54,540 bases of DNA from Pseudomonadota bacterium (GCA_016201015.1 JACQDQ010000115.1:1-54540); one strand, 5' to 3'; numbered from the stretch's first letter, positions 18,373 through 52,881 are shown. Translations and numbers: made by a program. The notes: generated by a model from the letters alone, not told the origin.

Positions 18373-18407
18373 GTCGTCGGCAGCCGCGGGTCGGGCGCCG
18401 AGCCGCT

Positions 18408-19304: not shown

Positions 19305-19323
19305 GATTATTAATCCCTATCAT
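19303..19323. promoter_or_regulatory. Candidate LysR box ATGAT-N11-ATCAT (T-N11-A type) overlapping the lysR-2 start
   Basis: 5-bp inverted arms spaced by 11 nt in the AT-rich divergent region. It shares the (A)TCATGA core with the module-1 site. Confidence 0.35.
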
Positions 19324-19422
19324 GATCCTTCAGGAACTTTGATTAGAATTTATCGTTCTTCCGGCTTAACCTGAACTGGAAAAATCGGCCCGCGCGGGCG
19401 ATCAAACGATATAGGGGCGGCG

Positions 19423-21519: not shown

Positions 21520-21524
21520 CGATC

Positions 21525-36732: not shown

Positions 36733-37326
36733 TCAGCCGATCACCAACAGGGCCAATCCCGCGACAGCAATTCCGGCGCCGCCGGCGCGGACGACCCAGC
36801 GTCCGACGCTACCCATGCAATATAGGCCGACGCCGGCGCCAAATCCATGGAGCAGGGCAGTTGCGGTGACGAAACCCAGTCCGTAAAGCAGCGGCGCGGC
36901 CGTCTCCGGCATCTCGGCGCCATGTGCAACACCATGAAAGAGCGCGAGAAATCCGACAATCGTCGCCCCGATCGCCGGCCGCGGACGCAGCGCCGCGGCG
37001 ACCAGCATGCCGAGCACCAGCAGCGAGCCGACGATGCCCAGCTCGACCGGCATCCCAGCAAAGCCCGCTGCGCCGATCATCCCGCCGACCGCCAGCATCG
37101 CAACGAACGCCCCCGGCACCAGCCATAACGCCCGCCCGCCAAGCTGGGCGGCCCACAGGCCGACGGCGACCATGGCCAGCACATGATCGAGCCCGCTGAA
37201 CGGATGAGTGAGTCCTTCGGTCCAGCCGGCGCCCTCGGCCCCAAAGACATGGGCGTGGGCGGCGATGGGTGAAACCGCAAGGACTGCGGCGGCTGCGACA
37301 ATTCGGCGCCAAGACGTGGTCTGCAT
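36733..37326 (-). CDS. hupE: HupE/UreJ-family (Ni/Co) membrane transporter
   Basis: Track ORF trimmed to Met27 (MQTTSWRRIVAAAAVLAVSPIAAHAH), with a GAGGAA RBS. Signature HPFSGLDHVLAM and a C-terminal FHGVAHGAE motif. ~6 TM. Confidence 0.87.
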   Translation of the reverse strand: MQTTSWRRIVAAAAVLAVSPIAAHAHVFGAEGAGWTEGLTHPFSGLDHVLAMVAVGLWAAQLGGRALWLVPGAFVAMLAVGGMIGAAGFAGMPVELGIVGSLLVLGMLVAAALRPRPAIGATIVGFLALFHGVAHGAEMPETAAPLLYGLGFVTATALLHGFGAGVGLYCMGSVGRWVVRAGGAGIAVAGLALLVIG

Positions 37327-37427: not shown

Positions 37428-38186
37428 ATGTCCGCGACCTTACCCGACCTCGTCTGGATCACCGGCGCCTCCTCGGGCATCGGCCGCGCCCTCGCCTTGC
37501 GCCTGGCGCGCGACGGCCATCGTGTCGCCGCCTCGGCGCGCAATGTCGAAGCCCTGGCGCAGCTCGTGCGTGAGGGCAGCGGCCGCGTCGTCCCGGTTCC
37601 GCTCGACGTGACGGACAAGGAAGCGGTTCGCGCGGCGGTGACCCGCATCGAGGCCGCGCTCGGCCCCATCGGCCTTGCCGTGCTGAATGCCGGCGCCCAT
37701 CGGCCGCTCTCGGCCGACGATTTCTCGACCGACGCGTTCCGCGCGCTGGTCGAGGTCAATCTCATGGGCGTGGTCCATTCTCTCGACGCGGTGCTCGCCG
37801 TCATGCGGCCGCGCCGCGCCGGGCACATCGCCGTCGTCGCCTCGGTCGCCGGCTATCGCGGCCTGCCGACGGCGGCGGCTTACGGCGCGACCAAGGCGGC
37901 GCTGATCAATATGTGCGAGGCGTTGCGGCTCGATTGCGCGCGTCTCGGCATCAAGCTCCAGATGGTCAATCCCGGCTTCGTCGAAACGCCGCTCACCGAG
38001 CGGAATTCGTTTCCAATGCCGTTCCTGATCCCGGTCGAGCGCGCCGTCGACCGCTTCATCACCGGCCTGGCCAGTGACCGTTTCGAGATCACGTTCTCGC
38101 GACGCTTTGCCGCAATTCTGCGCCTGCTGCGCTGCCTTCCCTATCCGCTCTACTTCCGGCTCGTGCGCGCGGCGACCGGCAAATGA
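37428..38186 (+). CDS. Short-chain dehydrogenase/reductase (SDR)
   Basis: Track ORF trimmed to Met54 (MSATLPDLVWITGASSGIGRAL). Motifs TGxxxGIG, NAG, YGATKAAL (YxxxK). Confidence 0.88.
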   Translation: MSATLPDLVWITGASSGIGRALALRLARDGHRVAASARNVEALAQLVREGSGRVVPVPLDVTDKEAVRAAVTRIEAALGPIGLAVLNAGAHRPLSADDFSTDAFRALVEVNLMGVVHSLDAVLAVMRPRRAGHIAVVASVAGYRGLPTAAAYGATKAALINMCEALRLDCARLGIKLQMVNPGFVETPLTERNSFPMPFLIPVERAVDRFITGLASDRFEITFSRRFAAILRLLRCLPYPLYFRLVRAATGK

Positions 38187-38626
38187 GCCGGATCGACACG
38201 CTACGCCGGGCACTCGACGCCTATGCGCAATTCTACGAGCAGCTCGCGCCGGAGCGGCTCGACGGCCTTGCGGCGCTGTTGGCCCCTGACGTGCGGTTCA
38301 AGGACCCCTTCAATGACGTGCGCGGGCCGGCCGACATGATCCGCGTCCTGCGCCTGATGTACGACCACGGCACGCCGCGCTTCGAGATGCGCGACCGCGC
38401 GGTCGGGACGGAGCGCTGCTATCTGCGTTGGCGCTACACGTCGACAAGAGACGGCCACAACGCGCCGTGGATCATCGAGGGCATGAGCGAGCTGCGTTTC
38501 GATGACGCCGGGCGCCTCGTCGAGCATGTCGATCATTGGGACGCCGCCGAGCAGGTCTATGAGCGGCTGCCGCTCATCGGCTGGCTCATCCGCCGGATCA
38601 AGCGGCGGCTGCAGCTCAAGACCTAA
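38183..38626 (+). CDS. NTF2/SnoaL-like fold protein
   Basis: 147 aa. ATGA overlap with the SDR stop. Sequence pattern (FYEQLAPERLDGLAALLAPDVRFKDPFNDVRG) is typical of SnoaL-like proteins found next to CFA-synthase clusters. Confidence 0.72.
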   Translation: MSRIDTLRRALDAYAQFYEQLAPERLDGLAALLAPDVRFKDPFNDVRGPADMIRVLRLMYDHGTPRFEMRDRAVGTERCYLRWRYTSTRDGHNAPWIIEGMSELRFDDAGRLVEHVDHWDAAEQVYERLPLIGWLIRRIKRRLQLKT

Positions 38627-38629
38627 AGC

Positions 38630-39820
38630 CTAGGGCCGGACGACTGCGACCTGGGTCACGTCGATCGAGCCGCCGCGGAAGCCCGCCTCGCAATAGGCGA
38701 GATAAAACTCCCACAGACGCTTGAAGCGCGCATCGAAGCCGAGCGGCGCGATGTCTGGCCAGGCCGATTGGAAGCGCTGGTACCAGAGCTTGAGCGTCTG
38801 CGCGTAATGGCCGCCGAAATAGTCCTGGCCGTCGATGGCGAGGCCGGCGGCGGTGATCGCCCGCGACAGCGCCGACGGCGACGGCAGCATGCCGCCGGGG
38901 AACACGTAGCGCTGGATGAAATCGACGCCCTTGCGGTAGCGGTCGAACCAGCTATCGGCGATGGTGATCACCTGCAGCGCGGCACGGCCCCCGGGCACCA
39001 GGCAGTCATGCATCTTAGCGAAGAAGGCGGGCCAGTATTTCTCGCCGACGGCTTCGAACATCTCGATCGAGGCGATGCGGTCGAACCGGCCGTCGAGCGC
39101 GCGGTAGTCCTGAAACCGCGCCTCGACGCGATCGGCGAGGCCGGCGGCATGAATCTGCGCGCGCGTATGCTCGAGCTGTTCCTTGGAGACGGTGATGGCG
39201 GTGACGCGGCAGCCATATTCGCGCGCTACGAACTGCGCAAAGCCGCCCCAACCGCAACCGATCTCGAGCACGTGATGCCGGGGCGCGACCGCCAGCTTTT
39301 CCGCGATCAGGCGGTATTTGTTCGTCTGTGCCGTCGACAGATCTTCCTCGGGCGCGGCGAACACGGCCGACGAGTAGGTCATTGTCGGGTCGAGCCAGCG
39401 CGCGTAGAACGCGTTGCCGAGATCGTAGTGATGGGCGATGTTGCGCCGGGCGCCGCTTCGCGTGTTGTCGCGCAGCGCGAACCACAGCCGGCGCAGCAGC
39501 CGCAGCGTCGATCCGCCGTAGTGCGTGCCGAATGCCTGGTCGTTGGCGTAGCCGAGCTGCAGCAGCGCGCGCAGATCCGGCGTCTCCCAATCGCCATCCA
39601 TGTAGGATTCGGCGAGACCGACCGTGCCGCCGGTGAACAGTCGCCGCACCATGCGGGCCCGACGGATGACGATGCTTGCCGCCGGTCCAGGCTGGCGGCC
39701 GGCGAAGCGGAAGCAGCGTCCGTCCGGCACGGTCACCGCCAGCTCGCCATGCTCGATTCGGCCGGCCGTCGCCAGCAGCAGGGAGAGCGGGCGCGGCAGG
39801 TCGCGTGTTTCCGCAGGCAT
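38630..39820 (-). CDS. Cyclopropane-fatty-acyl-phospholipid synthase-family SAM-dependent enzyme
   Basis: Track ORF 38630..40384 trimmed to Met189 (MPAETRDLPRPLS). Motifs NIAHHYDLGNAFY, VLEIGCGWGG (SAM binding), SIEMFEAVG, YLAYCEAGF. Confidence 0.9.
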   Translation of the reverse strand: MPAETRDLPRPLSLLLATAGRIEHGELAVTVPDGRCFRFAGRQPGPAASIVIRRARMVRRLFTGGTVGLAESYMDGDWETPDLRALLQLGYANDQAFGTHYGGSTLRLLRRLWFALRDNTRSGARRNIAHHYDLGNAFYARWLDPTMTYSSAVFAAPEEDLSTAQTNKYRLIAEKLAVAPRHHVLEIGCGWGGFAQFVAREYGCRVTAITVSKEQLEHTRAQIHAAGLADRVEARFQDYRALDGRFDRIASIEMFEAVGEKYWPAFFAKMHDCLVPGGRAALQVITIADSWFDRYRKGVDFIQRYVFPGGMLPSPSALSRAITAAGLAIDGQDYFGGHYAQTLKLWYQRFQSAWPDIAPLGFDARFKRLWEFYLAYCEAGFRGGSIDVTQVAVVRP

Positions 39821-39825
39821 CACGC

Positions 39826-40617
39826 TCACGGCGTCGCCTCGCGCGGCCGCTTGGCGGTGCCGGGATGGCGATAAAGGCGCACGCCCTTGAGCCACAGACG
39901 CAACGCCTGCCAGTGAATCGCAGTGACCACCCGCAGCGTCAGCAGCGGGAAAGCGGCGAAAGCGCGCAGCAGGGCGCCGTCGGACAAGACTCGGCGGCGC
40001 GCCGTATGCGTCGCGATCAGCAGCTCGCCCTCCGTCACGCTCTCGCGAATCAGAATCGACAGGCGCTCCTCCGGCTCGACCACGCGGAAGCGGTATACGG
40101 CATTCATATCGATGAACGGCGAGACGTGAAACTGTTTGGCGGCGCTCTGGCGAATCGGCGCTGCCGCCGGGTGGCCGGGCGCGACCGGCAGCACATAGGC
40201 ATGCTGCTCGCCGAAGGTGTTCTTCACCTCGTAGAGCATCGCGCGCAGCGTGCCATCGGCGGCGTAGCACCAATAGACGCTGATCGGATTGAAGACGTAG
40301 CCGAGCATGCGTGGAAAACAATGCAGATAGATCTTGCCGCCGGCAAGCGCGATTCCGTGCCGCGCAAGCTGCCGCTCGACCCATGGCCGCAGCGCAGCAC
40401 CGTCGCGGCTGCCGTGGTCGCGGTCGTGGAACGAGAACAGGTTGAAGCGATTATGCGAGAACCAGCGGAGCCGCGCGGCAACCTGCGGCATCTCGTCAAG
40501 GTCGAGCAGCAGCGAGAAGACGCGATAGACGAAGCGGTGGCGCACCGGCCGCTTGCGGCAATGCATCACCTCGCCGACATATAGACAACTCTCCGGCACC
40601 GCCCCCTCGTCAATCAC
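39826..40617 (-). CDS. DUF1365-family protein
   Basis: LYVGEVMHCRKRPVRHRFVYRVFSLLLDLDE and RMLGYVFNPISVYWCY are typical of DUF1365. The GTG start overlaps the upstream stop (GTGATTGA). The track's upstream extension is Arg-rich. Confidence 0.83.
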   Translation of the reverse strand: MIDEGAVPESCLYVGEVMHCRKRPVRHRFVYRVFSLLLDLDEMPQVAARLRWFSHNRFNLFSFHDRDHGSRDGAALRPWVERQLARHGIALAGGKIYLHCFPRMLGYVFNPISVYWCYAADGTLRAMLYEVKNTFGEQHAYVLPVAPGHPAAAPIRQSAAKQFHVSPFIDMNAVYRFRVVEPEERLSILIRESVTEGELLIATHTARRRVLSDGALLRAFAAFPLLTLRVVTAIHWQALRLWLKGVRLYRHPGTAKRPREATP

Positions 40618-42004
40618 CGGCCGCCGCCACCGCGCGAGACGGAAGAACTCCGCTGCCGCCCGCGGACAGCACGACCGCGCCCTCGTCGCGACCCGGTCCC
40701 GCCCATGGCCGCCTGGCGCCCAACGCCTCGGCGACCGCAAGGCCGCTCGCCAACGCATCCTCGTGGAAGCCGTGGCCACAATAACTGCCGCAGTACCACA
40801 CCCCCCCGCGGCCCTGTATGTTGGCGAGTTCGGCCTGCGCGCGCAAGGCCGCGCGATCGAAGGCCGGGTGCCGGTATTCGAAGGCGGCGAAGGTCAGCGC
40901 ATCGCGCGGCACACGGATTGGATTAAGCGAGACGAAGACCGGACACGCTGGATCGAGCGCCTGCAGCCGGTTCATCCAATAGGTCACCGACACCCGCAGG
41001 TCCTCGGCGCGCGAAAACGTCCGATCGCGCTCGGCCAGGTAGTTCCAGCTCGCCCAGGCGCGGCGGCGCCGCGGCATCAGGCGCGGATCGCGGTGCAGCA
41101 CGGCGAGATTCGGCTGATAGCGAAAGGCGCCCAGGATGCGCTCTTCCTCTGCCGTCGGGCGCGCCAGCATGGCGAGCGCTTCATCGGCGTGTGCGGCGAT
41201 CACGACATGGTCGAAGCGGCGCGCTCCGCCCTGCCCATCGTAGACCAGCGCGTCGTCGCCGTCGGCGCGCACCGCCTGCACTTCGCGGCCGCTGCAGATC
41301 GTACCAGAAAAGCGCTCGGCAAGCGCCGCCACATAGCTGCGGCTGCCGCCGGTAACGGTGCGCCATTGCGGCCGGCCGTCGATGCGCAGCATGCCGTGGT
41401 TGACGAAAAACTGGACGAAGCTACGTGCCGGAAACTTGAGCATCTCCGCGATCGGAACCGACCAGATCGCGGCGCCCATCGGCAGCAGATGGTCGTAGAG
41501 AAAATCGCGGGAGTACATTTCGCGACTGAGATATTCGCCGAGCGTCGGATCGTCATCGCCAGCCGCCAGCAGACGTGGCGCCTCGCGGAAGAAGCGGACT
41601 ATGTCGGCGATCATGCGCCAGTGTTGGAGCCGCACCAGGTTCTTGGGCTGCGCGAACAAGCCGGCATAGTCGCCGGCGCCGTATTCGAGCCGGCCACGAT
41701 CGATGCTGACCGCGAACGACATGTCGCTCGGCTGGGTGGCGACACCGAGATGCGCGAAGAGCCGCGTCAGGTTAGGGTAGTTCGGTTCGTTGTAGACGAT
41801 GAATCCGGTATCGACGGCGAGGCACCGATGGCCGAACTCGACCGTTACCGTGTTACTGTGGCCGCCCAGGCGGGTGGCCTTCTCGTACAGCGTCACGCGA
41901 TGGCGCTGGCCGAGCAGCCAGGCACAGCCCAGCCCAGCAATGCCGCCGCCGATGACCGCCACTTCGAGTGGCCGCACCGGATGGGCCGGGAAACGGTGGA
42001 TCAC
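40610..42004 (-). CDS. FAD/NAD(P)-binding amine-oxidase-like oxidoreductase
   Basis: N-terminal Rossmann motif VAVIGGGIAGLGCAWLL...VTLYEKATRLGGHS. 464 aa. Conserved partner of DUF1365 and CFA-synthase genes. Confidence 0.88.
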   Translation of the reverse strand: MIHRFPAHPVRPLEVAVIGGGIAGLGCAWLLGQRHRVTLYEKATRLGGHSNTVTVEFGHRCLAVDTGFIVYNEPNYPNLTRLFAHLGVATQPSDMSFAVSIDRGRLEYGAGDYAGLFAQPKNLVRLQHWRMIADIVRFFREAPRLLAAGDDDPTLGEYLSREMYSRDFLYDHLLPMGAAIWSVPIAEMLKFPARSFVQFFVNHGMLRIDGRPQWRTVTGGSRSYVAALAERFSGTICSGREVQAVRADGDDALVYDGQGGARRFDHVVIAAHADEALAMLARPTAEEERILGAFRYQPNLAVLHRDPRLMPRRRRAWASWNYLAERDRTFSRAEDLRVSVTYWMNRLQALDPACPVFVSLNPIRVPRDALTFAAFEYRHPAFDRAALRAQAELANIQGRGGVWYCGSYCGHGFHEDALASGLAVAEALGARRPWAGPGRDEGAVVLSAGGSGVLPSRAVAAAGD

Positions 42005-42133
42005 TGTGCAACCCGCCGGAATGTCCAGCCGGCCGCCCGAGCCAGACCGTCGATCATGCTAAGACGGTTTCCCGCGCTGAGGCTTACGGGCGATGCTTGG
42101 GTCATGGCCGCCGCCGTGGTGCGATACTGCACC

Positions 42134-42159
42134 TACGTTGCGGCCCGGCCGGCGGATCA
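42134..42159 (-). promoter_or_regulatory. Candidate ECF sigma-E (ChrR-partnered, ECF11-type) promoter TGATCC-N16-CGTA
   Basis: On the minus strand the sequence reads GTGATCC gccggccgggccgcaa CGTA. It lies in the 172-bp gap upstream of the FAD-oxidoreductase/DUF1365/CFA operon, ~125 nt before the start at 42004. Confidence 0.4.
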
Positions 42160-42176: not shown

Positions 42177-42578
42177 TTACCGCGCCGCAGCCGCGAATCG
42201 CCGTTGAAAATCGGCAAGCGCCGCCGGGGTGTAAGGCACCGGCGGCTTGACTCCCCAGACCGGCCGCGGCCACGCGGCATCGGTCGCGAAACGCGCGATG
42301 ACGTGGACATGGAGCTGGGCGACGACGTTGCCGAGCGCCGCGACATTGAGCTTATCGGGCTTAACCATCGCGCGCAGGATATCGCAGGCGCGGACAATCT
42401 CGTCGAGCAGCACGGCGCGATCGGCCACCGCGAGATCGATCAGTTCGCGCATGCCGGCACGGACCGGAACCAGGATGAGCCACGGATAGCTGGCGTCGTT
42501 CATCAGCAGCACGCGCGACAGCGGCCAAGCCGCGAGTTCGGTCGAAACTGCGGCGAGGCGCGGGTCGAGCTGAAACAT
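42177..42578 (-). CDS. HIT (histidine triad) family protein
   Basis: 133 aa. Histidine triad NVVAQLHVHVIAR. Confidence 0.85.
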   Translation of the reverse strand: MFQLDPRLAAVSTELAAWPLSRVLLMNDASYPWLILVPVRAGMRELIDLAVADRAVLLDEIVRACDILRAMVKPDKLNVAALGNVVAQLHVHVIARFATDAAWPRPVWGVKPPVPYTPAALADFQRRFAAAAR

Positions 42579-42584
42579 GGCGGC

Positions 42585-43673
42585 TCAGCCCGGCGCGGCA
42601 GCGCGCTGTCCGGGCGCCGCCGCGCGGACGGCGGCGATATCGACGCCGACCGACTTGCCGGCGGCGATGATCTCCGCCCAGCTGCGGCTGTCGATCTCGA
42701 TGCCGACGGCGGACCGGGCGACTCGCGTCTTGCGCTCGGGATCGCCGGCGACCATGACCGCCGTGCCATCGCCGCGCGGGCGCGACGACGTCACCCAGGC
42801 GATGTAGCGCTCGACCTCCTGCGCGAAGCCGGCGCTGTCGCCCAGCGCCGCCGGGTCGATGATCACCGACAGCATGTGGTTGATGATGCCCTTGGGGCGC
42901 CCCGCATGCGGTGCCACCGTGCCGCCGCCGGTCAGCGCGCCGGCGAGCAGATCGCAGGCGACCGACAGCCCGAAGCCCTTGTAGGTGCCGAAGGGCAGAA
43001 GCGCGCCGAACGGCTCGCGCCACATGACGTTGGCATCGGTGGTCGGCCGGCCCTCGGCGTCGATCAGGCAGTCGGGCGGGGCCGGCACACCTTTGTTGGC
43101 GGCGACGCGAGTCTTGCCCATGGCGATGATGCTGGTCGCCATATCGAGCATGATATTCCGCCCGCCGGGGCCGGGCACGCCGATGCACACCGGATTGGTT
43201 CCCAGCCGCGCATCGCGGCCACCATGCGGCGCCACGCGGGCCGGCACGCCGATGACGTTGACGTAGTGCATCGACACCAGACCGGCCCCGATGCAGCGCT
43301 CCGCCCAGGCGCCGATGCGGCCGAGATGATGCGCATTGCGCAGCGCGACGAGCGCCATGCCGAGTTTCTGCGCCTTGGCGATGCCGATCGCCATCGCCTC
43401 GGCGCCGATCACCTGGCCATAACCAAACTTGCCGTCGATCACCGCGATGGCACCGCGGTCGGAAATGACCTCGGCATGCTGATTAACTTTGAGCTGGCCC
43501 GCCTTCATGTTGGCGATATAGGACGGCAGCATGCCGACGCCATGCGAATCGTGACCCTGCAGATTCGCCTCGACCAAGTTCTCCGCCACGGCGGCGGACT
43601 CGGCCGCCGACGATCCGCCGGCGGCGCACACCGCCCGCACGAACGCTCGTAACTCCTCTGCCGCAAATAGCAT
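42585..43673 (-). CDS. Ldh_2-family (malate/L-lactate/ureidoglycolate-type) dehydrogenase
   Basis: Track ORF trimmed to Met150 (MLFAAEELRAFV). Motifs GHDSHGV, LGTNP, LDMATS, FGTYKGFGL. Confidence 0.87.
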   Translation of the reverse strand: MLFAAEELRAFVRAVCAAGGSSAAESAAVAENLVEANLQGHDSHGVGMLPSYIANMKAGQLKVNQHAEVISDRGAIAVIDGKFGYGQVIGAEAMAIGIAKAQKLGMALVALRNAHHLGRIGAWAERCIGAGLVSMHYVNVIGVPARVAPHGGRDARLGTNPVCIGVPGPGGRNIMLDMATSIIAMGKTRVAANKGVPAPPDCLIDAEGRPTTDANVMWREPFGALLPFGTYKGFGLSVACDLLAGALTGGGTVAPHAGRPKGIINHMLSVIIDPAALGDSAGFAQEVERYIAWVTSSRPRGDGTAVMVAGDPERKTRVARSAVGIEIDSRSWAEIIAAGKSVGVDIAAVRAAAPGQRAAAPG

Positions 43674-43690
43674 CAACGCGTTCCTTTCGT

Positions 43691-44584
43691 TCAGCCGCCC
43701 GGGATCGTTCCTGGCGGCAAGGTCGTGACATGGGCGGCGATGCCGCCGGCCGTGGTCGTCCACACCATGTCGCCGGCATTGTGGCACACATGGCGCAGCG
43801 CCCGGCGCAGATGGCGCAGCCGGTAGGGCTGGCCGACGAGATAGGCGTGCAGCGCGACACCCATCACCAGCGGCTGGCCGCGGCATTGGACGCGCATCTC
43901 GTCGAAATTGTCGACGATCATGTCGGCGAAAGCATCGGCATCGAGCTTGCGCGCGACGATCATCGGAATGTCGTTGATCTCCTGCGGATAGGGCACGCCG
44001 AGGATGCGGCCGTGACGCGTGCGAAACCAGATCGGCTGATCGTCCTGGCACCAGTCGAGCAGATAGGTATAGCCGGCCTCTTGCAATAGATCGGGCGTGA
44101 TTTGGCTCTCGGAAATCCACGGGCCGAGCCAGCCGGCCGGACGCTTCCCCTCGTGCCGGGCGATGACCTCCGTCGCCTCGCGGATGAGCGCCGCTTCGGC
44201 CGCCGCGTCGAGCGTGCCTTGTCGCTCGGCGTTGGTCCGGCCGTGGCCGACGATCTCGTCGCCGCGCCCGCGGAACGCGACGATCACCTCGGGTGCGTGG
44301 TCGTACATGACGCTGTTGACCAGCACCGAGCAGGGCAGCTTGAGCTCGTCGAACAGCTCGGCCATGCGCCAGACGCCGACGCGATTGCCGTAGTCACGCC
44401 AGGAAAAGTTGAGCACGTCGGGTGGCGGTCCGCCCGGCGCCAGCTCGGCGCCGAGACCTTCGCCGAAGGCGAAATGCTCGAGATTGAGGGCGACATAGAA
44501 GGCGAGCCGCCGCCGCTCCGGCCAGTGATAATCCGGCCGGCGGACGATCGCCGAGTAGCCGTAGCGTCCGTGATCGCGCAGCAT
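43691..44584 (-). CDS. Polysaccharide-deacetylase-fold protein (PuuE allantoinase-like family)
   Basis: Track ORF trimmed to Met159 (MLRDHGRYGYSAIVRRPDYHWPERRRLAFYVALNLEHF). NodB-like fold pattern (VGHGRTN, LDWCQDDQP). 297 aa. Confidence 0.78.
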   Translation of the reverse strand: MLRDHGRYGYSAIVRRPDYHWPERRRLAFYVALNLEHFAFGEGLGAELAPGGPPPDVLNFSWRDYGNRVGVWRMAELFDELKLPCSVLVNSVMYDHAPEVIVAFRGRGDEIVGHGRTNAERQGTLDAAAEAALIREATEVIARHEGKRPAGWLGPWISESQITPDLLQEAGYTYLLDWCQDDQPIWFRTRHGRILGVPYPQEINDIPMIVARKLDADAFADMIVDNFDEMRVQCRGQPLVMGVALHAYLVGQPYRLRHLRRALRHVCHNAGDMVWTTTAGGIAAHVTTLPPGTIPGG

Positions 44585-44594
44585 CGCTCGCTCC

Positions 44595-46184
44595 CTAGAA
44601 TCCCGCCACCACGCCATCGGCGCGCGGATCGGCGGCGCCCTCGATGACGCCGCCGGGATGGCGCACCAGCGCGCCGGCATGCCCCACCAGATCGGAAAAC
44701 TCCGGCAGCATCTCGACATCGTGCCCGGCCTGGCGCAGTCGTTCGATGAGCTCGGCAGCGAAGCGGCGCTCGAGCTTGAGCGTCGTGCTCTCCGCGCCCC
44801 AGGTGCGGCCGAGCAGCCAGCGCGGCGCGGTGACCGCCGCCTGCAGGCCCTGGCCGAACATGGCGTAGCGCGTGAAAAGCGCCGCCTGGGTCTGCGGCTG
44901 GCCCTCGCCGCCCATCGTGCCGTAGGCCATGACCCGGCCATCGGCGAGATGGGCGAGCGCCGGGTTAAGCGTGTGGAACGGCTTGCGACCCGGCGCCAGC
45001 GCATTGGGGGATTTGGCATCGAGAGCGAAGCTGGCGCCGCGGTTCTGCCACAAGACACCGCTGTCGCCGAGCACGACGCCGGAGCCGAACTCCCAATATA
45101 CGCTCTGGATATAGCTCACGGCCCGCCCGGCGCCGTCGATGACGGCGAACCAGATGGTGCCGCCCTGCGGCGACGGCACCGGCCAGGGCAGCGCCCGCGC
45201 CGGATCGATCGCCCGCGCGCGCTCGGCGAGCGCCGCTTCGGTCAGGAAGCTGGCCGGATCGACCGTCATCGTCGCCGGGTCGGCGACATGGCGGTTGCGC
45301 GCGAGGAAGGCCTGCTTGGTCGCCTCGACCAGACGATGCACATAGTCGAAATTTTCCGCCGCCGCGCAGCCAAGCCGATCGAAGATGCCGAGAATCATCA
45401 GCGAGGCCATACCTTGCGTCGGCGGCGGCAGATTGAACGTGGTGCCGGCACGCAGCTTCACCTGTAGCGGCGCGACGATCGCCGCGCGATGGTCTGCAAG
45501 ATCCTCGCGGCGCAGCGGCGTGCCCAGCCGCTCGAGTTCCGCCGCCATCGCCGCAGCAATTTCGCCGCGATAGAAGTCGTCGAGGCCTGCCTTCGCCAAA
45601 CGGACCAGCGTCGCGGCAAGCGCAGCGTTGCGCCGGATCGCGCCGCGCAATGGTGGCTTGTCAGCGTCGAGCATCGCCGCCGCGAAGCCGGGCACGTCCT
45701 TGAGCTGGCCGAGATGCGTCGTCGTGTAGGCCACCTGGCTGCCGGTGGTCGGCACGCCGTCGCGCGCGTAGCCGATCGCATCTTGCAGCAGCCGCGCGAG
45801 CGGCAACCGCCCGCCCCATCGCGCGCTGATCTCGAGCGCCGCCTGCCAGCCGGAGATGGCGCCGGCCACCGTGTTCGCGGCCAGCGGCCCGCGCTGCGGG
45901 ATCGCGTTGACGCCGTGGGCACGGTAGAAGCCGAGATCGGCGAGCCCGGCGGCGCGGCCGCACGCGTCGATGCCGACTGGCGGCCGGCCCGGCTCGTCGA
46001 TCAGCCAGAATCCGTCGCCGCCGATGGCGTTCATATGCGGATAGGCGACGGCGATCGTCGCCGCCGCGGCGACCGCCGCCTCGATTGCTGTGCCGCCCTC
46101 GCGCAGCACGGCAAGCCCCGACTGCGCCGCCTGATGATTGGGCGCGGTCACCATGCCGCGCGTCGCCAGCAAGGCATTCAGCAT
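44595..46184 (-). CDS. Gamma-glutamyltransferase-fold Ntn hydrolase without a signal peptide (oxamate-amidohydrolase-like candidate)
   Basis: 529 aa. MLNALLATRGMVTAPNHQAAQSGLAVLREGGTAIEAAVA (GGT N-terminus, no leader). Autoprocessing/nucleophile Thr in PQGGT-IWFAV. Also TLNPAL and GGEGQPQ. Confidence 0.88.
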   Translation of the reverse strand: MLNALLATRGMVTAPNHQAAQSGLAVLREGGTAIEAAVAAAATIAVAYPHMNAIGGDGFWLIDEPGRPPVGIDACGRAAGLADLGFYRAHGVNAIPQRGPLAANTVAGAISGWQAALEISARWGGRLPLARLLQDAIGYARDGVPTTGSQVAYTTTHLGQLKDVPGFAAAMLDADKPPLRGAIRRNAALAATLVRLAKAGLDDFYRGEIAAAMAAELERLGTPLRREDLADHRAAIVAPLQVKLRAGTTFNLPPPTQGMASLMILGIFDRLGCAAAENFDYVHRLVEATKQAFLARNRHVADPATMTVDPASFLTEAALAERARAIDPARALPWPVPSPQGGTIWFAVIDGAGRAVSYIQSVYWEFGSGVVLGDSGVLWQNRGASFALDAKSPNALAPGRKPFHTLNPALAHLADGRVMAYGTMGGEGQPQTQAALFTRYAMFGQGLQAAVTAPRWLLGRTWGAESTTLKLERRFAAELIERLRQAGHDVEMLPEFSDLVGHAGALVRHPGGVIEGAADPRADGVVAGF

Positions 46185-46190
46185 CGCGGG

Positions 46191-47630
46191 TCAGCCCACA
46201 CCCAGCGATTCCGCCAGCGCGACGAGCGCCTGGCTGAAGCAGACCATCGGCGCGCGCACGATGCCGGCGCCGACCTGGCCGATGCCCGCCACCTTGTGCG
46301 CCATGCCGGTTGTGAACACCGGGCGAATGCCGCTGTCGACCACTTTGCGCACGTCGACGCCGGTGGGGGCGCCGGCGAAGTCGAGCCGCGGCAGTGCGAG
46401 CGCCGGATTGCGCGCGATCGTGATGTCGTACATCTCCTGCGAATAGGCGACCGCCGCGTCGGCCGAACCGCCGACGAGCTGCACCAGCGCCGGCGAGGCG
46501 GCCAGCGAGAAGCCGCCGAAGCCGGCGGTCTCGGTGATCGCGCTGTCGCCGAGATCGGCGTTGGCGTCACCGGCCTTGAAGCCGGGGAAAAATAGCCCGA
46601 CCGGCGTATCCGCCGCGGCCTCGAACCAGCGCCCGCCGAGCCCGCTGACGCGGATGCCGACGGTGACGCCGTTGCGCGCCATCGCCGTCACCATGCTGCT
46701 CGCCGCGACGCCGTGCGCCGCGTCCATCGTCGCCTTGGCCGAGACCATCGACAGATTGAGGAAGAATTGCGAATTGCCATCGATGCTGCGCAGCACCTCG
46801 CGCAGCATTGCGTCGTCGAGATCGCTTTGGATGAGCGGTATCGTGATTGCCTCGAGGAACAACGAGGTCGAGGCGGCATTGCGGCTATGCACCTCGTCGC
46901 CCATCGCCAGCGCGCGGGATTGGATCGCCTTGAGGTTGATGCCGCCGTCGATCGCCGTCACCGCGCGCTTGAGCGCCGGCGCCAGCGCGGTTTCGATCCA
47001 GCGCAGCCGCTCGATCACCTCCGGGCCGTTGGCGCCGAAGCGCAGCACCTTGCCAATGCCTTCGTTGATGTTGGTAAAAGCGACGTTGCCGGCATCATCA
47101 TTGCGCACCTTGAACAAAGGCATCGATGGCGAAATGATGCCGCTCATCGGCCCGACCGCGCCGTGATCGTGGCACGGGTTGAAGGCGATCTCGCCTCGTG
47201 CCAGCAGCGCGCGCGCCGCGTCCGCATCGGCGGCCCAGCCCTCGTAGAGCAGCGCACCGATCGCGGCGCCCTGCATCGGCCCGCACATGCGCTCCCAGGC
47301 GATCGGCGGGCCGGCGTGGAGCAACGTGCGCCCCATATCGGGAAACGCCTCGCGCGCATGCGCCACGACGTCGACCAGCATCGGCTGCGCGGCGAGCACG
47401 CGGGCGACCGCCTGCTGATTGGCGCGATCGATGCGCGCACCGGGAGACTCGGGGTCGGCCGGGTCGCCGGCGAGCTGCGCCAACAACCATGCGAGGCGCG
47501 GATCGCCATCGCCGATCGGCCGCCAGGCGATGTCGAGCGCCGCCGCGCCAACCTCGCGGGCGGTCGCGGCGAAGTCGCCGAGGCCGAGATTGACGATCGT
47601 CGGCGCGCGGGCGATGAGCTGCTTCGTCAT
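46191..47630 (-). CDS. DUF1116 protein (YlbE/AllG-like), paralogue 1
   Basis: 479 aa. Motifs LHAGPPIAWERMCGPMQGA, GAVGPMSGIISPSMPLF, FFLNLSM, GDSAITETAGFGG. ATGA overlap with the DUF2877 gene. Confidence 0.85.
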   Translation of the reverse strand: MTKQLIARAPTIVNLGLGDFAATAREVGAAALDIAWRPIGDGDPRLAWLLAQLAGDPADPESPGARIDRANQQAVARVLAAQPMLVDVVAHAREAFPDMGRTLLHAGPPIAWERMCGPMQGAAIGALLYEGWAADADAARALLARGEIAFNPCHDHGAVGPMSGIISPSMPLFKVRNDDAGNVAFTNINEGIGKVLRFGANGPEVIERLRWIETALAPALKRAVTAIDGGINLKAIQSRALAMGDEVHSRNAASTSLFLEAITIPLIQSDLDDAMLREVLRSIDGNSQFFLNLSMVSAKATMDAAHGVAASSMVTAMARNGVTVGIRVSGLGGRWFEAAADTPVGLFFPGFKAGDANADLGDSAITETAGFGGFSLAASPALVQLVGGSADAAVAYSQEMYDITIARNPALALPRLDFAGAPTGVDVRKVVDSGIRPVFTTGMAHKVAGIGQVGAGIVRAPMVCFSQALVALAESLGVG

Positions 47631-48523
47631 ATCGCCGTCTCGTGAACCTGGCGCAACGCGCCGGTGAGGCCGGCGATGAGTCCGGCCAACATGTCCCAGC
47701 CTGAGGAATGACCGATGGCGACAAAGCGGCGTGCCGCGGCGAACGCGGCATCCCCATCATTGCCATGCATGGCCTCCACGAGCGTGTGGAGTAACGCGAA
47801 GCTCTGCCCGTCGGCAAGGTCGGCGAAGAGGGCGGCGCTGATCCGATTCGTCCGCCGTACCGCCTCGGCCTTGAGGGACTCGGCGATGTCGTCCCAATGC
47901 CGCGCATTGGTTGCGGGTATATGGCGTCGTGCGAAAATTAGGCCGCCGACGAAGTCGTCGCCCGACGGCGTGAGGCCCGGGCCGAGGCCGATGAGCGGCA
48001 ATGCCGCCGCGACGACCGCCGCGTCATCGCCCGCTGCCGACGCGCGGACGAATGCCGCGGCCAGATGGACCGCCCGATCCAGCGGAAACGTCGGCGTCTG
48101 GCCGAACAGGCAGGCGCCAAGGCCGCCGGCCGGCGCCAGTCCCACGAGCCGCTCGCAGAGCGCCGGTCCGGCCGCACGACGCCGATCGATATCCCACGCG
48201 GCGAGCTCGCGCCGCGCCGGCCGCCACGGCTCAACGCCGGCGAATTCGATGTGCAGCAGATCTTGGCCCACTGGCAGCGACTCTGCGAGCAGCACCAGGC
48301 GCGGATGCGGCGTGCGGTCGCTCAGCCCCAGCCAGATCACCTCGCCGGCGGCCGTGGCGTAGATCGACTCCGACAGTGTGGACAACAGCCGCGCGCGACC
48401 GAAGCTGCGCGCGAGCGCCGCGTGCGCCTTGGCACCGATCGCCGCAACGCGCAAACCGCGATCGAGGATTGCATCAGGCGACAAGGCGAGTCCCCGCGGT
48501 ACCGCGCAACGCATCGAGGCCAC
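47627..48523 (-). CDS. DUF2877 protein (YlbF/AllH-like)
   Basis: GLGPGLTPSGDDFVGGLIFA motif. GTG start at 48523 overlaps the carbamate-kinase 3' end by ~50 nt, so the true start may be a little downstream. Confidence 0.7.
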   Translation of the reverse strand: MASMRCAVPRGLALSPDAILDRGLRVAAIGAKAHAALARSFGRARLLSTLSESIYATAAGEVIWLGLSDRTPHPRLVLLAESLPVGQDLLHIEFAGVEPWRPARRELAAWDIDRRRAAGPALCERLVGLAPAGGLGACLFGQTPTFPLDRAVHLAAAFVRASAAGDDAAVVAAALPLIGLGPGLTPSGDDFVGGLIFARRHIPATNARHWDDIAESLKAEAVRRTNRISAALFADLADGQSFALLHTLVEAMHGNDGDAAFAAARRFVAIGHSSGWDMLAGLIAGLTGALRQVHETAI

Positions 48524-49323
48524 GCTCGAGCGAGGTGATGACGGCCGTCCGACCGCTCTGCGCCACGAAGCGGATCGCCGCGCGAATCTTCGGCCCCATG
48601 CTGCCTTCGGGGAACTGGCCGCCGGCCAGATGGCGCTCGGCTTCGCGCACGGACAAGCGGTCGACCGCGCGCTGCGTCGGCTTGCCGAAATCGAGCGCCA
48701 CGCGATCGACGCCGGTAAGGATGATCAGCGCATCGGCGCCGAGGTCGGCGGCGAGCACGGCGCTCGTCAAGTCCTTGTCGACCACCGCGGCTACGCCCTC
48801 GTACATCCCGTCGGATCGCGGCACCACCGGTATGCCGCCGCCGCCAGCCACGATCGGTATCGCCCCGGCGTTCAGCAGAAGCCGCACGACGTCGATCTCA
48901 AGGATGGCGCGCGGCTCCGGCGAAGGAACGACGCGCCGGTAGCCGCGGCCGGAATCCTCGGCCATGGCCCAGCCCGTTTCGCGCGCCACGCGCTCTGCCT
49001 GTTCGGCGGCATAGAACGGCCCAACCGGCTTGGTCGGATGCCGGAAGGCTGGATCGTCGACATCGACGACGACGCGCGTCACGACCGACGCGACCTGAAC
49101 CGCATGGCCGTGCGCATGCAGTAAGTTGGCCAGGCTCTGCTGCAGGATATAGCCGATGCCGCCCTGCGAATGGGCGACGCATATGTCCATCGGCATCGGC
49201 GTCAGCTGCGTCGCCGATATCGCCAGCGATGGCGAACTGCTCCTCGGCGGTACCGCGGATATCCGGCGGGTAGGTTGCGTTGCCGCCGAGCGCAACGACG
49301 ACGATCGGGCCGGCCGCGGTCAT
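48474..49323 (-). pseudogene. arcC: Carbamate kinase gene with an internal deletion and frameshift
   Basis: The N-terminus MTAAGPIVVVALGGNA... is in one frame (ORF 48898..49323). The rest (MPMDICVAHSQGGIGY...GGGGIPVV...DKDL...FPEGSMGPKI...ITSLE) is in another frame (ORF 48474..49295). The frames switch near 49205-49225. The HGNGPQVG segment normally found between these parts is absent in all frames. Confidence 0.75.
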
Positions 49324-50756
49324 GACGCGGCGCCGAGGGCCCGGGCGAGCGCGGCGACGGCGCCGACGAAGCAGGCCATCGGCGCGCGGGCGAGGCCCAT
49401 GCCGATCTGTCCGAGTCCCGCTTGTCGATGCGCGATCGCGGTCACGATCGCCGGCCGCACGCCGTTGTCGACGACCTTGCGCACGTCGATGCCGGTGGGC
49501 GCGCCGACGAAATCGAGCGCCGGCAGGGTGAACGCCGGGTTGCGCGCGAGCGTGACCGAGTCCAAGTCGCGCGTGAGGTCGAGCGCGGCCTCGGCGGTCC
49601 CGCCCACCGCCGTGACCAAACCGAGCCCGGCGCCGAGCGCGAACGCGCCGAGGCCGGCCGCTTCGACGATCGCGCTGTCGCCGAGATCGGGGTTGGCGTC
49701 GACCGCCGTGTAAGGCGGCACGATCACACCCGACGGCATTTCGGCCGGCGCGGTGAACCAGCGCTCGCCGAGGCCGCTCACGCGGATGCCGGTTTCCACG
49801 CCGTTGCGGGCAATTGCCGTGACCAGGCTGCTGTCGGCGACGCCATGTGCCGCGTCGAGCGCGGCCTTGGCCGCCGCCATCGCCAGATTGAGAAAGAAAC
49901 CGGGGGTCGACTGGATATGACGCAGGATGGCGACGACGGTGCGGCGATCGAGTCCGGCATCGAGCAGTGGCCGCGTAAATGCGCGGAAGACGAGCGACGT
50001 CGCCGCCGTCGTACGGCCATGCAGCTCGTCGCCCATATGCAGCGCCTGGGCGATGATCGGCTTGAGCGGCAGGCCACCCTCGAGCGTGCTGAGGGCGCGC
50101 TTGAGTCCCGGGCCGATGAAGCGCTGGATCAGCTTGAGGCGATCTCCGACCTCCGTCTCGTAGACGCCGAACTGCAGCGACCGGCCGCCGCCGTCGGCGA
50201 TCGGCGCGTAGGCGATATTGCCGCGCGCGGCGTTGCGCACGACGAAGAGCGGCATCGACGGCGAGACTACGCCGGCCATCGCCCCGACGGCGCCGCGATG
50301 ATGCCCGGGCGCGAAGGCGATCTCGCCGCTAGTCGCGAGCTTCCCCGCCGCCTTGGGCGTGCCCGCCCAGCCTTCGTAGAGGATCGCGCCGATGATCGCG
50401 CCGCGCATTGGCCGGCACATGCGGCCCCATTCGATCGGCGGCCCGGCATGCAGGATCGTCCGCCCCAGATCCGGCCACACCTCGCTCGCGCGCCGCGCCA
50501 CGTCGACCAGCACCGGCTGCGCATCGAGCAGGCGGGACATGGCCTCGCGGTTCGCCCGATCGATGCGCGAGCCAACCGCATCCTTGTCGCTGTCGTCGCC
50601 GAAGAGGCGCGCCAACGCCCATGCGGATTCGCCATCGGCCGCCGGCGGACGCCAGTCGAGATGAATGGCGCGCGCACCGCCGGCCCGTGCCGTCGCGGCG
50701 AAATCGCCAATGCCGAGATTGAGCACCGACACGCTGGGCGCGACGAGCGGCCTCAT
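49320..50756 (-). CDS. DUF1116 protein (YlbE/AllG-like), paralogue 2
   Basis: Track ORF 49320..51806 trimmed to Met351 (MRPLVAPSVSVLNLG), whose ATG overlaps the fdrA stop (ATGA). 478 aa, collinear with paralogue 1. Confidence 0.85.
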   Translation of the reverse strand: MRPLVAPSVSVLNLGIGDFAATARAGGARAIHLDWRPPAADGESAWALARLFGDDSDKDAVGSRIDRANREAMSRLLDAQPVLVDVARRASEVWPDLGRTILHAGPPIEWGRMCRPMRGAIIGAILYEGWAGTPKAAGKLATSGEIAFAPGHHRGAVGAMAGVVSPSMPLFVVRNAARGNIAYAPIADGGGRSLQFGVYETEVGDRLKLIQRFIGPGLKRALSTLEGGLPLKPIIAQALHMGDELHGRTTAATSLVFRAFTRPLLDAGLDRRTVVAILRHIQSTPGFFLNLAMAAAKAALDAAHGVADSSLVTAIARNGVETGIRVSGLGERWFTAPAEMPSGVIVPPYTAVDANPDLGDSAIVEAAGLGAFALGAGLGLVTAVGGTAEAALDLTRDLDSVTLARNPAFTLPALDFVGAPTGIDVRKVVDNGVRPAIVTAIAHRQAGLGQIGMGLARAPMACFVGAVAALARALGAAS

Positions 50757-52324
50757 CGCTTGGCCATGTTCTTTCCGAAGCCGGCGATTTCGGCCGCGGC
50801 CCAGGCCGCCGCCGCGCTGCTCGACGCGAGCAGGGCACCGGCCTTGCGCAGCTTGTTTTCCTGATCCGACCGGCGCTGCGGATCCTGCTCGGTGCCGCAG
50901 ACGAATGCCACGACGCTCAGATACCGGCGCTTCGCGCGCGCCTCGGCCTTGGCCTTTTGGATCGCCGGCGCCAGCACGCCGGCCGGATCGGCATGCGCGC
51001 CGTGGCCGAGCACGACATCCAGCACCACGACACCGACGGCCGGATCGCGCGCCTCTTTCAGCAGCCGTTCGACCCGCATTGTCATGTCGATCATCGGATG
51101 CGGCCGGCCAATCGTGAATTCGTCGCTGCCGAAATCGACCACCGCGTGTTCGATGCCCTTCTGCCCCTCGACAAGCAGCAGGTCCTTGTCGAACGGCACG
51201 TTGGAGCGGGTCTTGAGACCGAGATCGCGCCAGATGAGCTGCGCCTCGCTGCAGAACGTGCCACCGGAATAGAGGCCGCGGAGACCGCGCTGATCCGCGC
51301 GGAGCCGCGCCTGCTCGCGCTTCACCCCCGCTAGGCTCGGCGCGCGCGTCATGCGCGACGGCGTGGCGCGGCGCCGCAGGGTCGCCACCGCGCGCTCGGC
51401 CGCCTCCTCGAGCGTGCGTACGGCGAGGATGTTCTTGCGGCCGGCAACCATGGCCGAATCGCCGCCGAGAAACAGCGCCACCACCGGCTTGCCCGCGGCG
51501 GCGGCGCGATCGAGAAGCGCCGCGGCAACCGCCGGCGCCGGCGGCTTCGACAACAGCACGATCACCCGCGTCTCGGCATCGGCCGCGAGCAGGTCGAGAC
51601 CCTGCATCAGCGTGATGCCGCCGATCGCTTCCGAGGCGTCGCGGCCGCCGGCGCCGATCGCATGCGACACGCCCTCGCCCCGCCGATCGATCTGGCACAT
51701 CACCTCCTGCAGCCCGGTGCCGGAGGCGGCGATGAGCCCGATCGCGCCGCGGCGCACCACGTTGGCGAAGCCGAGCGGCACGCCATGCAGAATGGCCGTG
51801 CCGCAATCCGGCCCCATGACGATGAGGCCCTTGCGCTGCGCCAGCTCCTTGATCGCCTTCTCCTGCTCGACCGGCACGTTGTCGCTGAACAGAAAGACGT
51901 TGAGGCCGAGGCGCAGCGCCTTGAGCGCCTCGGCGCCGGCATAGGCGCCGGGCACCGAGATCATCGCCAGGTTGGCATCCTTCATGCGCGCGACGCCCAG
52001 CGCCAAGCTGCGCGGCGCGCGCTCGGCCGCGGCGCCGCGTTCCGCCGCGAGGTTGCCGGACAACAGCTCGTTCATGCGCGCGACGGCGGCGTCCACCGCC
52101 GCGTCATTGGCGCCGTCGATCACCGCCATGATGTCATCGGGGCGCGCGGCGATCGCCTCCGGAGTCAGCATCGCGGCCTCGGCGAGGATCGCCTTGTTGG
52201 CCTGCGTGCCCATGAGCAGCGTCGCGCGCCGCACGCCGCTCAAGGCGGTGAGGGCCTCGGCCACGCGCATCAACGCCACCGAGTCCTTGTAGAGATCCGC
52301 CTTGACCAGCGAACGAATCGGCAT
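50753..52324 (-). CDS. fdrA: FdrA-family protein (succinyl-CoA-synthetase-alpha-like, AllF-like)
   Basis: Track ORF trimmed to Met162 (MPIRSLVKADLYKDSVALMRV). CoA-ligase-type motifs GPDCGTA, ASGTGLQE, SHAIGAGGRD (phosphohistidine loop). Confidence 0.87.
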   Translation of the reverse strand: MPIRSLVKADLYKDSVALMRVAEALTALSGVRRATLLMGTQANKAILAEAAMLTPEAIAARPDDIMAVIDGANDAAVDAAVARMNELLSGNLAAERGAAAERAPRSLALGVARMKDANLAMISVPGAYAGAEALKALRLGLNVFLFSDNVPVEQEKAIKELAQRKGLIVMGPDCGTAILHGVPLGFANVVRRGAIGLIAASGTGLQEVMCQIDRRGEGVSHAIGAGGRDASEAIGGITLMQGLDLLAADAETRVIVLLSKPPAPAVAAALLDRAAAAGKPVVALFLGGDSAMVAGRKNILAVRTLEEAAERAVATLRRRATPSRMTRAPSLAGVKREQARLRADQRGLRGLYSGGTFCSEAQLIWRDLGLKTRSNVPFDKDLLLVEGQKGIEHAVVDFGSDEFTIGRPHPMIDMTMRVERLLKEARDPAVGVVVLDVVLGHGAHADPAGVLAPAIQKAKAEARAKRRYLSVVAFVCGTEQDPQRRSDQENKLRKAGALLASSSAAAAWAAAEIAGFGKNMAKR

Positions 52325-52492
52325 GTGCGCGACGTCCCCCCGCGTGCCGGAGGCGGATAACCCCCGTCTTCGACTATGTAAATGGCCGCCTGAGGCGTCA
52401 CAAGCGCAAAACGGCGCACGGGCCCACCCGCCGGCGGCGAAAGGCGGCCGCCGCTGACTCTGGTTTGAAGCGCTGAACTTGCTTGTTAAGAT

Positions 52493-52840
52493 TTGCCGAT
52501 GACCCATGATCCGCCGCGCAGCTACGCAGAGTTCTGGCCCCATTACCTGCGCGAGCACGCGCGGCCAGCGACTCGCCGCCTGCACTATGCCGGCACGGTT
52601 GCCGGGCTCCTGCTGCTGGCAGCCGCAATCTTGTGGGGCGATGCCCGCCTCGTCGCCTTGGCCATCCTCGCCGGCTATGCCCCGGCTTGGCTCGCTCATT
52701 TTTTCGTCGAACGCAACCGGCCGGCCACGTTCCGGCACCCGCTTTGGTCCCTGGCGAGCGATCTGCGCATGCTCGGCCTCGCCGCGACCGGCCGCTTGCG
52801 CGCACATCTCGACCGTGCCGCGCCCAGCGCCAAGCGGTGA
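52493..52840 (+). CDS. DUF962 (Mpo1-like) membrane protein
   Basis: 115 aa. Motifs [22 protein letters not shown] and [16 protein letters not shown] are typical of DUF962. Two TM segments. Divergent from fdrA. Confidence 0.75.
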
Positions 52841-52881
52841 TCAGGGCGACGCCGACACGGTTGCGTGAATCGGAGGGAGCG

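Follow-up and report, generated by a model that had tools for sequence, protein, structure and literature searches.

The 54,540-nucleotide (nt) sequence JACQDQ010000115.1:1-54540 (assembly GCA_016201015.1, Pseudomonadota bacterium), hereafter called the window, has a guanine-plus-cytosine (GC) content of approximately 67% and contains nine head-to-tail reading frames on the minus strand, running from position 52324 down to 42177, which form an operon around a predicted carbamoyltransferase of the AllFGH type. In order of transcription these are fdrA, a first DUF1116 gene (DUF1116-b), a carbamate kinase pseudogene, a DUF2877 gene, a second DUF1116 gene (DUF1116-a), and genes for a hydrolase of the gamma-glutamyltransferase (GGT) fold, a PuuE-like protein, an Ldh_2-family dehydrogenase and a HIT-family protein. 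Coordinates are those of the open reading frames (ORFs), all on the minus strand unless indicated otherwise. ATGA overlaps were present at three junctions (fdrA/DUF1116-b, DUF1116-b/kinase and DUF2877/DUF1116-a), the annotated start of DUF2877 falls within the 3′ end of the kinase gene, and the other intergenic gaps measure 6, 10, 17 and 6 nt. A preliminary description had proposed nine tightly packed minus-strand genes lacking an internal regulator gene; all nine were confirmed at the same positions, with Pfam and NCBIfam agreeing on the families, and the absence of a regulator gene from the operon was confirmed as well.

The three protein families now named AllF, AllG and AllH are encoded together and all score above the model cut-offs, with the DUF1116 family represented twice (Pfam, NCBIfam), which bears out the FdrA-DUF1116-DUF2877 module recognised previously. 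The allF-like gene fdrA (50753–52324) encodes a subunit of 523 amino acids (aa) that scored 494 bits against NF004760 (cut-off 433), contains the Pfam domains CoA_binding and Ligase_CoA, is 41% identical to Escherichia coli FdrA, and has PDB entry 3DMY as best structural match. The allH-like subunit DUF2877 (47627–48523, PF11392, 80 bits) has up to 298 aa, with its start position uncertain between 48483 and 48523, and its C-terminal 109 aa share 33% identity with E. coli YlbF. Biochemical work identified AllFGH of E. coli as the oxamic transcarbamylase (Kim & Kim 2022, 2024; PMC9843812, PMC11326118), and the older annotation of FdrA as an acyl-CoA synthetase was set aside here, as it is superseded by the biochemistry in PMC11326118. 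Judged by these family matches, the core of the operon is a predicted AllFGH-type carbamoyltransferase module.

Both DUF1116 proteins match the AllG family PF06545, DUF1116-a (46191–47630, 479 aa) with E = 1e-85 and DUF1116-b (49320–50756, 478 aa from the ATG at 50756) with E = 1e-76. DUF1116-a is 50% identical to E. coli YlbE and matches PDB 3CLQ at E = 2e-120, while DUF1116-b is 43% identical to YlbE and 55% identical to DUF1116-a. A neighbour-joining tree built from 125 DUF1116 proteins placed DUF1116-a within a large clade marked by the motif NEGIGK...RFGAN, which we termed a-type, and DUF1116-b on a long branch that is sister to a clade marked by MESGG, termed b-type. At 160 columns conserved in the family, 22 residues were altered in DUF1116-b, compared with a mean of 16 in the other b-type proteins and 4 in DUF1116-a, and approximately 16 of the changes in DUF1116-b at conserved columns were seen in no other b-type protein. 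The N-terminal 50–60 aa of both window proteins (encoded by 47480–47630 and 50610–50756) are homologous to the C-terminal tail of E. coli FdrA (L001:12217–12342), with 31% identity over 42 aa and an NCBIfam match to positions 506–554 of the FdrA model; this stretch belongs to DUF1116 in the window and most taxa, and the fdrA/DUF1116 gene boundary is shifted in E. coli.

Comparison with other genomes, based on one 80-locus sample, showed that the b-type gene neighbours another DUF1116 gene in all eight b-type loci examined, the window included. The second DUF1116 copy, at first regarded as a departure from the known layout, is therefore real but not unique, and belongs to a recurrent architecture. 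The order FdrA-b-kinase-a was found in two metagenome loci (L004, L005) and in a member of the Hyphomicrobiaceae (L007), and a metagenome-assembled genome (MAG) of the Ferrovibrionaceae (L008) has FdrA-b-kinase-DUF2877-a, exactly the core order of the window, together with an HpxW-like gene. In Bradyrhizobium sp. C9 (L003, L006) the b-type copy is paired with an E. coli-like DUF1116 protein of 418 aa and a second FdrA, so that two FdrA and two DUF1116 paralogues surround a single carbamate kinase in a layout unlike that of the window. A Burkholderiales group has FdrA-kinase-DUF2877-a and no b copy. Since a-type and E. coli-type copies each occur either alone or with a b-type partner, the two may be equivalent, and we infer that the a-type protein is the counterpart of AllG and the b-type protein an added partner. 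With DUF1116-b as query, only one close relative was recovered, on a JGI metagenome contig (L002).

The second indication of the route comes from the GGT-fold protein (44595–46184, 529 aa, PF01019), an HpxW-like N-terminal nucleophile (Ntn) hydrolase and putative oxamate amidohydrolase. Its best PDB match was 5HFT, with E = 4e-92 for one chain and 7e-81 for the other, which is Klebsiella pneumoniae HpxW, an oxamate amidohydrolase (Hicks & Ealick 2016). Identity to 5HFT is approximately 53% for the large chain, 65% for the small chain and 57% overall, and the nucleophile Thr343 is conserved, as it aligns with residue 1 of the 5HFT small chain. By inspection only, the protein has no leader, and its alignment with 5HFT starts at residue 5, so the HpxW likeness and the leaderless nature suggested at the outset were both upheld. 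HpxW-like genes adjoin the b-type modules of L002, L003 and L008, and none was found beside the single-copy loci (36 loci of ≥18 kb). A GGT protein 61% identical to that of the window is encoded on an Azospirillum plasmid in the same cluster as an amidase gene and hpxZ, approximately 9 kb away, the latter annotated as "oxalurate catabolism". Further genes of this cluster (Azospirillum sp. TSH58 plasmid p04, 193–220 kb; L091/L092) encode xanthine-dehydrogenase-family subunits and nicotinate-pathway-like proteins, and there is one DUF1116 gene, unaccompanied by FdrA or DUF2877. The link with HpxW is the strongest support for oxamate as a probable intermediate.

The last three genes are less readily connected with known ureide enzymes. 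The PuuE-like protein (43691–44584, 297 aa) has a polysaccharide-deacetylase fold with a weak PF01522 match, and resembles the PuuE structure PDB 3CL6 (E = 3e-26), but with 126.2 bits against the TIGR03212 cut-off of 424.6 it is not an orthologue of PuuE. It is a member of a large alphaproteobacterial family with relatives of 70–76% identity, which stand alone in unrelated contexts in the two other alphaproteobacterial genomes examined. The Ldh_2-family dehydrogenase (42585–43673, 362 aa, PF02615) had by implication been linked to the oxidation of ureidoglycolate, but it fails both AllD models (TIGR03175, 112 versus 496 bits; NF011599, 120 versus 356 bits), is 29% identical to E. coli AllD, and is of the YbiC/HcxB type instead, passing NF007504 (444 versus 336 bits) and matching PDB 2G8Y with E = 4e-96 compared with 4e-26 for AllD structures. 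A role as ureidoglycolate dehydrogenase would thus be a guess. The operon ends with the HIT-family protein (42177–42578, 133 aa, PF01230, 49.6 versus 21.5 bits), in which the histidine motif reads QLHVHVI and for which the PDB relatives are only entries titled HIT protein or HIT family hydrolase, carrying no functional name. The gene contexts of close PuuE-like and Ldh_2 homologues were unrelated to FdrA modules and gave no functional clue. In 39 long loci from other genomes, the FdrA module was never accompanied by a relative of Ldh_2 or HIT, and a PuuE-like gene was present in one (L042), as a distant homologue with 31% identity.

Two contigs from the same metagenome allowed selection on the operon to be assessed. 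L002 is 95–97% identical at the DNA level to window positions 50281–45294, and L089 is 90% identical to positions 44053–42143, with the final part of the PuuE-like gene, Ldh_2 and HIT spaced as in the window (HIT 6 nt past Ldh_2). The ratio of nonsynonymous to synonymous substitution rates (dN/dS) was 0.11–0.36 across eight genes, the kinase remnant included, with fdrA not covered by either contig. In comparison with L002, values of 0.115, 0.20 and 0.36 were obtained for DUF1116-a, DUF1116-b and DUF2877, respectively, which places the divergent b-type copy under purifying selection, and the comparison with L089 gave 0.25 for the PuuE-like gene, 0.15 for Ldh_2 and 0.22 for HIT. The tail of the operon is thus lineage-specific, yet conserved under purifying selection. 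Synonymous divergence (dS) of Ldh_2 was 0.46 (window 42585–43673 versus L089:381–1466), compared with 0.06–0.12 for the genes on either side, suggesting allelic replacement by recombination. Synteny between the window and L089 stops 34 nt past the HIT stop codon, which marks the 3′ end of the operon. A region of 4.65 kb (37492–42142), containing an SDR gene, a SnoaL-like ORF and genes for cyclopropane-fatty-acid (CFA) synthase, DUF1365 and an amine oxidase, is absent from L089, where HIT is directly followed by a HupE/UreJ gene (window 36733–37326, minus strand); this indel sits exactly at the 3′ boundary of the operon. In L002, 539 nt of non-coding-looking, repeat-rich sequence (L002:2100–2638) replace 41 nt of the window (48244–48284) within DUF2877 and truncate the gene. 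This may be a second, independent lesion or an artefact of metagenome assembly; a mobile repeat of the window genome was considered and rejected, as the window holds no copy and only a weak match of 85 nt to Rhizobium plasmids was found.

The carbamate kinase gene (arcC/allK-like, 48474–49323) is split over two frames (48474–49295 and 48898–49323), with the N-terminal 32 codons in one frame and the remainder in the other, and the fragment scores below the TIGR00746 cut-off (303 versus 358 bits), covering only positions 66–308 of the model. Relative to L002, where they are present (L002 1058–1158), 101 nt are missing from the window at the 49226/49225 junction. The lost nucleotides encode approximately 34 residues, including THGNGPxVG, a conserved motif shared by E. 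coli AllK and the kinases of two further clusters, and the loss of 101 nt, which is no whole number of codons, shifts the frame. The L002 kinase is intact, with 316 aa and a score above the TIGR00746 (arcC) cut-off. Sequencing error was rejected as the cause, since the difference is one of 101 nt and not a homopolymer slip. The surviving codons have a dN/dS of 0.11–0.13 against L002 and carry no additional lesions, which indicates that the deletion is recent. The kinase is genuinely disrupted, as noted previously, but with the 101 nt intact in a relative of 95–97% identity, the lesion is a recent strain-specific deletion rather than a design feature of the operon or a departure in its layout. 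A kinase was located within 10 kb in 14 of the 39 long FdrA-DUF1116 genome loci, so that such loci can probably do without a linked kinase.

The genes flanking the operon are unrelated to it, with the amine oxidase, DUF1365 and CFA synthase genes on the 3′ side and, divergently oriented on the 5′ side, a 120-aa ORF (52506–52868, plus strand) with a hydrophobic core and a gene for an alpha/beta-hydrolase-OsmC fusion. The coding-like GC3 signal of the 120-aa ORF explains the long open frame upstream of fdrA; a DUF962-like name given to it on reading by eye was dropped, as Pfam gave no match. The presumed promoter/operator region of 181 nt upstream of fdrA (52325–52505) contained two weak inverted repeats only, with no Rfam match and no sigma-70 consensus or sigma-54-like site, and scans for regulatory sites found no promoter or terminator signals above chance. 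Elsewhere in the window, two hydantoinase/oxoprolinase A/B pairs, an arginase-family enzyme, an aminotransferase and TRAP transporters are encoded. The two A/B pairs are ATP-dependent and arranged in tandem, and with a LysR regulator and an Amidohydro_3 enzyme they make up another cyclic-amide catabolic cluster (12927–24883), approximately 20 kb from the operon. Neither the operon nor the rest of the window contains allB, allC, allD, allE or other canonical allantoin genes, which extends to the whole window the earlier finding that enzymes forming allantoate or ureidoglycolate are missing from the operon.

Taken together, we consider it moderately probable that these genes form a functional, or very recently damaged, operon for nitrogen salvage from ureides, built around an AllFGH-type phosphorolytic carbamoyltransferase. 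FdrA, DUF2877 and DUF1116-a would correspond to AllF, AllH and AllG of E. coli, respectively, with DUF1116-b as an accessory paralogue, probably in a mixed a/b DUF1116 pair. The complex would carry out phosphorolysis of oxalurate, or of an N-carbamoyl-oxamoyl compound very similar to it, yielding oxamate and carbamoyl phosphate, after which the HpxW-like Ntn-hydrolase would convert oxamate to oxalate and ammonia, and an intact ancestral kinase would have converted carbamoyl phosphate to ATP, CO2 and NH3. As the kinase is inactivated in this strain, carbamoyl phosphate would go to another kinase or to arginine or pyrimidine synthesis. The combination of an AllFGH-type core with a GGT-fold protein close to HpxW (approximately 57% identity) makes oxalurate to oxamate to oxalate the best reading of the operon. 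Of the route put forward in the preliminary description, the conversion of oxalurate to oxamate plus carbamoyl phosphate and onwards to oxalate and NH3 is reasonable, whereas assigning the initial ureidoglycolate step to the Ldh_2 protein, which is not AllD, would be a guess. The PuuE-like hydrolase and YbiC-type dehydrogenase form a plausible lineage-specific entry branch, whose substrate may be a 5-substituted hydantoin such as parabanate, 5-hydroxyhydantoin or a comparable oxidation product of a purine or pyrimidine; opening of the ring would be followed by oxidation of the resulting 2-hydroxy ureide to oxalurate. By our reasoning, ring opening would give ureidoglycolate from 5-hydroxyhydantoin, and oxalurate directly from parabanate; the HIT protein may have some role as well. 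A 1965 report, as cited in PMC11326118, described induction of oxamate transcarbamylase by parabanic acid, and a 2025 review proposed that allantoinase-like opening of oxidised-guanine hydantoins leads to oxaluric acid.

Several observations weigh against this interpretation. The window subunits are only 33–50% identical to their E. coli counterparts, both DUF1116 copies fall outside the E. coli YlbE branch in the tree of 125 proteins, many family-conserved residues are replaced in DUF1116-b, and the operon has neither a transporter nor a regulator. The sibling a/b loci encode RutB/BiuH-like isochorismatase hydrolases, all of which score below every NCBIfam cut-off, and BmpA-type ABC transporters, hinting at other ureides. 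The a/b-type enzyme may accordingly act on a different N-carbamoyl compound, such as allophanate, a biuret- or triuret-derived intermediate or a pyrimidine-derived ureide, with the HpxW-like enzyme hydrolysing the matching amide instead of oxamate. The separation of the a-type and b-type clades from YlbE, the hydrolases and transporters of L003–L008, and the location of allFGHK beside biuH, trtA and bmpA in MAGs of nitrifiers (2025 study, PMC12625717) would all fit such a substrate. We nevertheless regard it as unlikely, because the GGT-fold protein is so similar to a biochemically characterised oxamate amidohydrolase, its Azospirillum homologue is clustered with hpxZ, annotated for oxalurate catabolism, and no isochorismatase-family or BmpA gene lies near the window operon. 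The operon could also be a decaying, non-functional remnant in this lineage, as the frameshifting deletion of 101 nt in the kinase, the replacement of 41 by 539 nt in DUF2877 of L002, and the long branch of DUF1116-b with its approximately 16 unique substitutions at conserved positions might suggest. Each relative, however, has a single lesion in a different gene, that of L002 being perhaps an assembly artefact, none of the other eight reading frames is truncated and all are closely coupled, and dN/dS stayed at 0.11–0.36 in every gene compared, kinase remnant included, which makes decay very unlikely.

The Ldh_2 protein is not AllD-like, the PuuE-like protein fails the PuuE model, and with homologues occurring in the absence of an FdrA module it is co-transcription alone that ties these two to the core. 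Confinement of the module to the first six genes, with the PuuE-like, Ldh_2 and HIT genes as co-transcribed but unrelated passengers, is a possibility of minor but real weight: relatives of Ldh_2 and HIT are absent from all 39 long loci, the sole PuuE-like gene is the distant one of L042, and the close homologues of PuuE-like and Ldh_2 sit in unrelated contexts. Against this, the gaps of 10, 17 and 6 nt hold no terminator-like site, the trio is kept under purifying selection directly downstream in L089, and the chemistry of a ring amidohydrolase and a 2-hydroxyacid dehydrogenase would suit the production of oxalurate. At the other extreme, the a/b enzyme together with the PuuE-like, YbiC-type and HIT proteins would constitute a new pathway for salvaging hydantoins derived from oxidised purines or pyrimidines (parabanate, 5-hydroxyhydantoin or relatives) via oxalurate, in which the b-type subunit sets specificity or regulation and carbamoyl phosphate is channelled into biosynthesis, rendering the kinase dispensable; this more ambitious proposal we hold to be quite unlikely.

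The proposed salvage operon can be placed among the systems described so far. In the E. coli allFGHK genes (fdrA-ylbE-ylbF-ybcF) and in the window alike, the three subunit families occur alongside a carbamate kinase gene, but the window has a second, divergent DUF1116 gene between fdrA and the kinase, a different gene order, an internally deleted kinase, and no allB, allC, allD or allE neighbours, and the N-terminal stretch of its DUF1116 proteins is the C-terminal tail of FdrA in E. coli. Its host, at approximately 67% GC, is probably an aerobic soil-type alphaproteobacterium. Klebsiella HpxW (5HFT) has the autoprocessing Thr and the lack of a signal peptide in common with the window GGT protein, but functions with the HPX route, of the amidase type, in which AllFGH takes no part, whereas the window protein is encoded in an AllFGH-type operon; the joining of an HpxW-like gene to such an operon thus combines the ALL and HPX solutions. 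The a/b clusters of soil Proteobacteria (L003–L008) resemble the window in comprising FdrA, b-type DUF1116, kinase, in some cases DUF2877, and a second DUF1116, but they encode a RutB/BiuH-like hydrolase, an ABC transporter of the BmpA type and a regulator (LysR or TetR), in place of which the window has the PuuE-like, Ldh_2 and HIT genes. PuuE allantoinase (3CL6) has the same fold and family as the PuuE-like protein, which reaches less than one third of the PuuE cut-off, and E. coli YbiC/HcxB (2G8Y) has fold and family in common with the window Ldh_2, which passes the YbiC-type NCBIfam model.

The protein families, the core reaction (2024) and the location of allFGHK near other ureide genes in environmental genomes are already known, but AllFGH was identified in 2024 in E. 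coli only (PMC11326118), and we found no description of the a/b paralogue architecture or of the nine-gene layout in the published literature. The operon is a genuine variant, maintained by selection, of an established nitrogen-salvage route, and as such not surprising in principle. What it adds is that a distinct form of heteroparalogous (a/b) make-up turns up repeatedly, in several proteobacterial genomes and MAGs from soil and freshwater, that this form can be joined to an HPX-type oxamate hydrolase, and that in one lineage it acquired a putative ring-opening and oxidising entry branch. For annotators this is a caution that "allFGHK" in environmental genomes does not automatically denote simple oxalurate catabolism, and the operon provides constructs for working out the subunit composition and substrate range of the AllFGH enzyme class.

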